Origin: a virus
Taxonomy: Duplodnaviria; Heunggongvirae; Uroviricota; Caudoviricetes
IMG/VR virus record: IMGVR_UViG_2585427657_000002
Reading direction: 5' to 3' (one strand)
Length of the DNA stretch: 44,098 nt
Under the pieces are notes generated by a model. The model saw only the letters and a list, made by a program, of their open reading frames with translations, searched no databases and was not told the DNA's origin. The position numbers and the translations under genes are program-made. Position 1 is the first letter of the stretch. Every line of letters begins with the position of its first letter. This document shows, one piece after another, positions 4,697 through 5,362 of this stretch.

Positions 4697-5362
4697 TCAC
4701 CCAAACGTCTCTTCAGGCCATTGGCTGGCGATAACTTTCCCCACAACGGAACAACTCTCATTGCATGGGATCATTGGGTATTGTGGGTTTAGTGGCTGTA
4801 GAAACACCTGACCGCTATCCCTGATCAGTTTCTTGAAGGTAAATTCATCACCACCAAGTCTGGCTATGCAGAAATCGCCGGGCTCAACAGCTTGCTCAGG
4901 GTCAACCAGAATTAACATCCCGTCAGGAAAGCTGGGTTTGGAACCTGTTGGTGCGGTCATTGAGTTACCTTCAACCTCAAGCCAGAATGCAGAGTCACTG
5001 GCTTTTTTGGTTGTGCTTACCAATCTCTCCGCATCGCCTTTGGTAAAGGTTCTGAGTTCTGGAGAGAACATCCCAGCCTGAACATGAGAAAAAACAGGGT
5101 ACTCCATATTGTTTTTTAACTGGGGCCCGATGAGTATTCCGCCAACACGGTGAAAATGTCCCCGTCGTGGTTGAATGATATGTTATCAATACCAAGGTAT
5201 TTAAACACCACACCCAATATCACTAAGAGATGGATGACGAGATCCGCGCAACCAGTGTCCAATCCCACCCTGCGTCATACCTAGCTCTTCGGCTAACTTC
5301 TCTTGAGTTATGCCGAGCTCTTTCATTCTGGATCTAGCCAGTTCATACCATTTCATTTTCAT
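4697..5362 (-). pseudogene. cI: cI-like repressor (N-terminal HTH plus C-terminal S24 LexA-like peptidase domain), frame interrupted
   Basis: HTH ORF 5201..5362 (MKMKWYELARSRMKELGITQEKLAEELGMTQ...) and S24 ORF 4697..5107 (...[15 protein letters not shown]...VEGNSM...KK) are in the same frame but separated by three in-frame stops (5201..5203, 5186..5188, 5183..5185). Confidence 0.55.

Follow-up and report, generated by a model that had tools for sequence, protein, structure and literature searches.

The repressor locus as written

The window analysed here, a whole stretch of 44,098 nt, contains a cI repressor gene that is interrupted between its HTH domain and its S24 peptidase domain. This raises the question whether the prophage has lost its repressor, makes a shortened version of it, or carries an intact gene that is misrepresented in the record. 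The initial annotation had left these three options side by side as an inactivated repressor, an HTH-only, non-inducible mini-repressor, and sequencing indels. The features of the locus are as follows.

4697..5398, minus strand: cI repressor gene as written, 702 nt, interpreted as a genuine gene of 696 nt to which six spurious bases have been added
5201..5398, minus strand: HTH fragment ORF, 65 aa, read as artefactual (Pfam HTH_3, E 1.7e-10; exact sequence WP_432264373.1)
5183..5203, minus strand: three in-frame stops (5201-5203, 5186-5188 and 5183-5185), the shifted stretch read in the HTH frame
5104..5213, minus strand: linker stretch of 110 bp with the six bases read as spurious, from alignments to clean Nissle and re-sequenced CFT073
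4697..5107, minus strand: S24 fragment ORF, 136 aa, read as artefactual (Pfam Peptidase_S24, E 2.8e-29, full-length match)

Three-frame translation of the minus strand confirmed that the HTH ORF and the S24 ORF lie in one frame with three stops between them. The HTH ORF reads MDGSS...MKMKWYELARSRMKELGITQEKLAEELGMTQGGIGHWLRGSRHPSLSDIGCGV and closes with ...SLSDIGCGV before the stop codon 5201-5203; the terminal CGV is already out of frame. The RefSeq start is the ATG at 5398; other in-frame starts are found at 5362, the one chosen in the initial annotation, and at 5356, which has the best AAGGA spacing. Beyond the stops the frame of the HTH ORF reopens as the S24 ORF, which ends with ...WPEETFG and a stop at 4697-4699. 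The Ala-Gly site for autocleavage, recognised before in the VQAGMF motif, lies in the 136-aa S24 fragment together with the Ser/Lys dyad, and these residues align to A111-G112, S149 and K192 of lambda cI. The linker is legible only by frame hopping, and its pieces, including APVKKQY, surface in turn across the three frames. This legibility bears out the earlier proposal that the stops mark an out-of-frame stretch created by indels and are not simple nonsense mutations.

Six single-base insertions account for the interruption

An alignment with intact homologous cI genes, the check suggested in the initial annotation, located six insertions of 1 nt each, at approximately 5104, 5126, 5139, 5148, 5160 and 5213 (aligned to CP022686 and CP051263). 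All six inserted bases are G on the coding strand and C on the plus strand, their placement inside G runs being ambiguous by 1-3 nt. After deletion of the six bases, the DNA is identical over 696 nt to the cI genes of CP022686, CP058217, CP080246 and CP051263, and the product is WP_001302016.1, a protein of 231 aa. The true reading traverses all three frames twice, and the net change of +6 restores the frame; because six is a multiple of three, both flanking domains remain in one frame. Reading the linker out of frame between the in-frame domains generates the three stops. The alignment replaces the two compensating indels suspected earlier by six +1 insertions. The T6 run at 5112..5117, which had been proposed as the site of one of them, is indeed present, and it is identical in the intact genes.

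The interruption was not reproduced in independent sequencing. Uninterrupted ORFs of 231 codons are found in the Nissle 1917 assemblies CP022686 and CP058217, in the Nissle derivative SYNB1934 (CP080246) and in re-sequenced CFT073 (CP051263). In CP058222 and CP158446 the 875-nt span is likewise annotated as a single LexA-family gene, and newer CFT073 assemblies carry a single intact LexA-family gene. One continuous ORF for both domains is thus absent from the window as written and present in all other same-strain assemblies examined, and these assemblies were taken as a stand-in for a test on raw reads. The linker was found in 775 of 5,426 complete E. coli genomes, and the +6 length occurred only in NC_004431.1, the 2002 assembly of CFT073; none of the 775 matches the window at 99% or better. 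Among approximately 15 billion proteins, the exact 65-aa fragment is present on one contig only and the intact protein on at least 1000 contigs. A 50-mer across four of the insertions had no exact match in IMG/VR viral contigs.

We conclude that the interruption of cI is almost certainly a sequencing or assembly artefact and that the actual product of the locus is an intact lambdoid cI repressor of 231 aa. Of the three options in the initial annotation, sequencing indels are the one supported, since deletion of six bases yields exactly the 696-nt gene. The uninterrupted 231-codon ORF in three Nissle-lineage assemblies and in re-sequenced CFT073 supports neither an inactivated repressor nor an HTH-only mini-repressor.

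Origin of the extra bases

The six extra G residues (coding strand) go back to the 2002 Sanger assembly of CFT073, where four N mark the stretch concerned. NC_004431.1 has an N at three of the six extra positions (window 5105, 5128 and 5139) and, within the same 130 bp, a fourth N (window 5231) and two substitutions; RefSeq annotates a split gene at this cI locus. At the fourth N and at the two substituted positions the window carries the correct base; where the other three Ns coincide with insertions, it carries the adjacent G. Random resolution of the Ns and ambiguity codes of NC_004431.1 was considered as a source of the window sequence and rejected on these same states. As the outcome at the Ns is non-random and the substitutions are corrected, read-based polishing fits better than chance. 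The pattern of shared states suggests the following course of events. The window would derive from CP007799.1, the 2014 assembly of E. coli Nissle 1917, which would have inherited the linker stretch from the CFT073 reference. Subsequent polishing with Nissle reads would have corrected the substitutions and replaced the Ns while leaving the indels standing.

A second error-like cluster was seen in NC_004431.1 at approximately 1434005-1434250, corresponding to a tail gene at 31484..31728 of the window. It consists of five indels and an N, with two substitutions close by. The tail gene is annotated as frameshifted in NC_004431.1, and the window follows the clean Nissle sequence there.

Other differences between the window and clean Nissle

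Positions 1-1664, 16321-21358 and 22092-44098 of the window match Nissle CP022686 with 100% identity. In the segment from 2020 to 16158, the comparison with clean Nissle gave eight indels and zero substitutions, and all eight indels are CFT073-like states: the six G residues in cI, a T8 run and an extra CAGGT.

5443..5450, plus strand: run of T8 between cI and cro (operator/promoter region), as in both CFT073 assemblies; three Nissle assemblies have T7
8078..8082, plus strand: extra CAGGT (CAGGTCAGGT), at the exact site of an IS3-family element in CFT073; clean Nissle has one CAGGT

A genuine difference between the strains in the PR/PRM region, wrongly assigned to Nissle in this record, may underlie the T8/T7 variation. 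The extra CAGGT looks like a scar of in silico removal of the IS from a CFT073 template.

Larger anomalies were observed elsewhere in the window. Positions 1662..2018 hold two tandem 173-nt copies of an IS3-family end (1662-1834 and 1846-2018) where clean Nissle has 13 nt, a likely assembly artefact at a repeat. A duplication of approximately 5 kb in the region 16159..22391, with a copy at 11968-16158, covers the porin, lysis and cos region. A 165-nt inverted copy (16159-16323) adjoins its direct copy, and a segment of approximately 450 nt occurs four times (15425-15874, 19778-20227, 21358-21807 and 21942-22391). Neither clean Nissle nor CFT073 has the duplication, the inverted copy or the fourfold segment, and a span across 16000-16500 of the window was found in no complete RefSeq E. 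coli genome. The duplications at 16159..22391 are probably mis-assemblies, a reading that fits the length of CP007799.1, which is approximately 386 kb longer than CP022686.1.

Errors in CP007799.1 have been reported before. The genes irp1 and irp2 are disrupted in CP007799.1 and intact in CP022686.1, and the strain makes yersiniabactin (PMC8636617); re-sequencing has also revealed SNPs and small indels dispersed across CP007799.1 (PMC9049610). The irp1/irp2 case is likewise a false disruption. The cI error differs from it in being traceable base by base to the N positions of NC_004431.1.

Rival readings of the interrupted gene

Three rival readings, in which the gene is a genuine pseudogene, a mini-repressor gene or a recoded gene, together retain only a slim share of the probability. 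In the first, the isolate carries six real insertions, the repressor is dead and the prophage is silent through other defects. The stops are present in the sequence as given, and prophage 3 of Nissle, to which the locus belongs, is defective and not inducible (PMC5987069), so that a dead cI would be tolerated. However, this reading needs six independent +G events within 110 bp of a window of which long segments are 100% identical to clean Nissle. The same six positions recur only in the 2002 assembly of another strain, where an N stands at three of them. Three Nissle assemblies and re-sequenced CFT073 carry the intact gene; that all six insertions had reverted exactly is not a credible course of events, and we consider a genuine pseudogene very unlikely.

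Less likely still is that the original CFT073 stock and the Nissle stock used in 2014 both truly carried the insertions, with the free HTH domain acting as a non-cleavable mini-repressor. The stock sequenced in 2014 could in principle differ from later stocks, and if the insertions were real, the consequence would be SOS-independent immunity conferred by a defective prophage.

The more general proposal that the 65-aa fragment is made and provides non-cleavable, SOS-insensitive immunity is given a lower probability again and is regarded as highly improbable. The HTH_3 domain is nearly complete in the fragment, and isolated N-terminal domains of lambda-type repressors can weakly bind operators. 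On the other hand, real insertions are required here too, contrary to the evidence; the fragment lacks the domain for dimerisation and cooperativity, and its exact sequence is confined to the single contig mentioned above.

Programmed recoding, in which ribosomal frameshifts would fuse the HTH and S24 parts, draws on the shared frame of the two domain ORFs and on a linker that is legible in other frames, but its probability is negligible: six successive shifts would be required at sites without slippery heptamers, 774 other linker-carrying genomes are without the six bases, every homologue examined has a single frame, and conserved recoding sites persist across relatives, the opposite of the pattern seen here.

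The preferred reading, an error in the record over an intact gene, has practical consequences. CP007799.1 remains in use as a reference for Nissle 1917 (e.g., PMC9049610), and caution is warranted, as its split cI could mislead readers into taking prophage 3 of Nissle to be without an inducible repressor. The case also illustrates how patches of error in a reference genome can pass into the reference-assisted assembly of another strain.

Prophage context

The host prophage is the icd-adjacent lambdoid "prophage 3" of Nissle, in which ISEc52 and a truncated integrase stand in place of the left arm. Three genes next to cI are relevant here.

5475..5690, plus strand: cro-like HTH gene, divergent and intact, WP_000067727.1 in homologous loci; it marks the immunity region
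4100..4657, minus strand: 185-aa ORF, match to subunit M24A of the candidate defence system PDC-M24, E 4.8e-4 (PADLOC)
3351..4103, minus strand: 250-aa ORF, DUF1828, match to subunit M24B of PDC-M24, E 4.7e-10 (PADLOC)

The 185-aa and DUF1828 genes overlap and lie directly downstream of cI, at the position of rexAB in lambda. PHROGs lists the function of both as unknown, and together they may form a prophage-encoded candidate defence pair that is co-transcribed with the repressor.

A "phage repressor (pr), EcN_1294" has been described to protect K-12 from lambda and Stx phages (Bury et al., 2018; PMC5987069). The cloning primers for EcN_1294 map to 5786-5804 and 6135-6155 of the window and the qPCR primers to 6029-6087. 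All of them fall on the CII-family gene (cII homologue, 5832..6128, plus strand) and none on cI.

The restored repressor and its relatives

The restored protein matches Pfam HTH_3 (E 2e-10) and PF00717 (the LexA-like Peptidase_S24 domain; E 1.3e-28, full profile 1-116). Its S144 and K187 are the residues that align with lambda S149 and K192, the Lys being pinpointed by the K192A structure 8gmu, and its cleavage site, VQA106-G107MF, is identical in context to lambda A111-G112. Based on its sequence, the real protein is predicted to be a standard inducible lambdoid repressor. From the near-identity to lambda cI, the repressor would be expected to bind as a dimer to the operators that separate cI from cro, and to be inactivated when RecA* stimulates it to cleave itself at Ala106-Gly107 with the Ser144/Lys187 dyad.

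The closest relative is WP_001302016.1 itself, encoded in the lambdoid prophage next to icd that Nissle 1917 and CFT073 have in common with many B2 and O157 strains. Apart from the six bases, DNA and protein are identical, and the gene neighbourhood is shared, with cro, cII and O/P to one side and the overlapping 185-aa and DUF1828 genes to the other. There is nothing unusual about the real gene, a widespread lambdoid cI that is already annotated. The cI genes of Stx1 converting phage, Stx2 II and the PA-series phages show 97-98% DNA identity over 89% of an 881-nt query; they carry the annotation cI and are intact. The same holds for the 97-98% identical cI genes of phages ev017 and 2G7b, in which the repressor is annotated as "CP-933H". 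None of these Stx-group phages has the frameshifts, and their far upstream flank is diverged from that of the window. The N-terminal HTH_3 domain of the restored protein is of this CP-933H/Stx-phage immunity type.

Compared with lambda cI (PDB 3bdn, 1f39 and 8gmu), the restored C-terminal domain (residues 96-231) is approximately 99% identical to lambda residues 101-236, and the two loci share their gene layout, in which cro diverges from cI and leads into cII, O and P. The N-terminal HTH domain and the linker, in contrast, have diverged. Since the N-terminal part differs from that of lambda and near-identical intact cI genes are found in Stx phages, the immunity and operator specificity of this repressor are probably different from those of lambda. 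The combination of a lambda-like C-terminal domain with a diverged N-terminus is ordinary lambdoid mosaicism.
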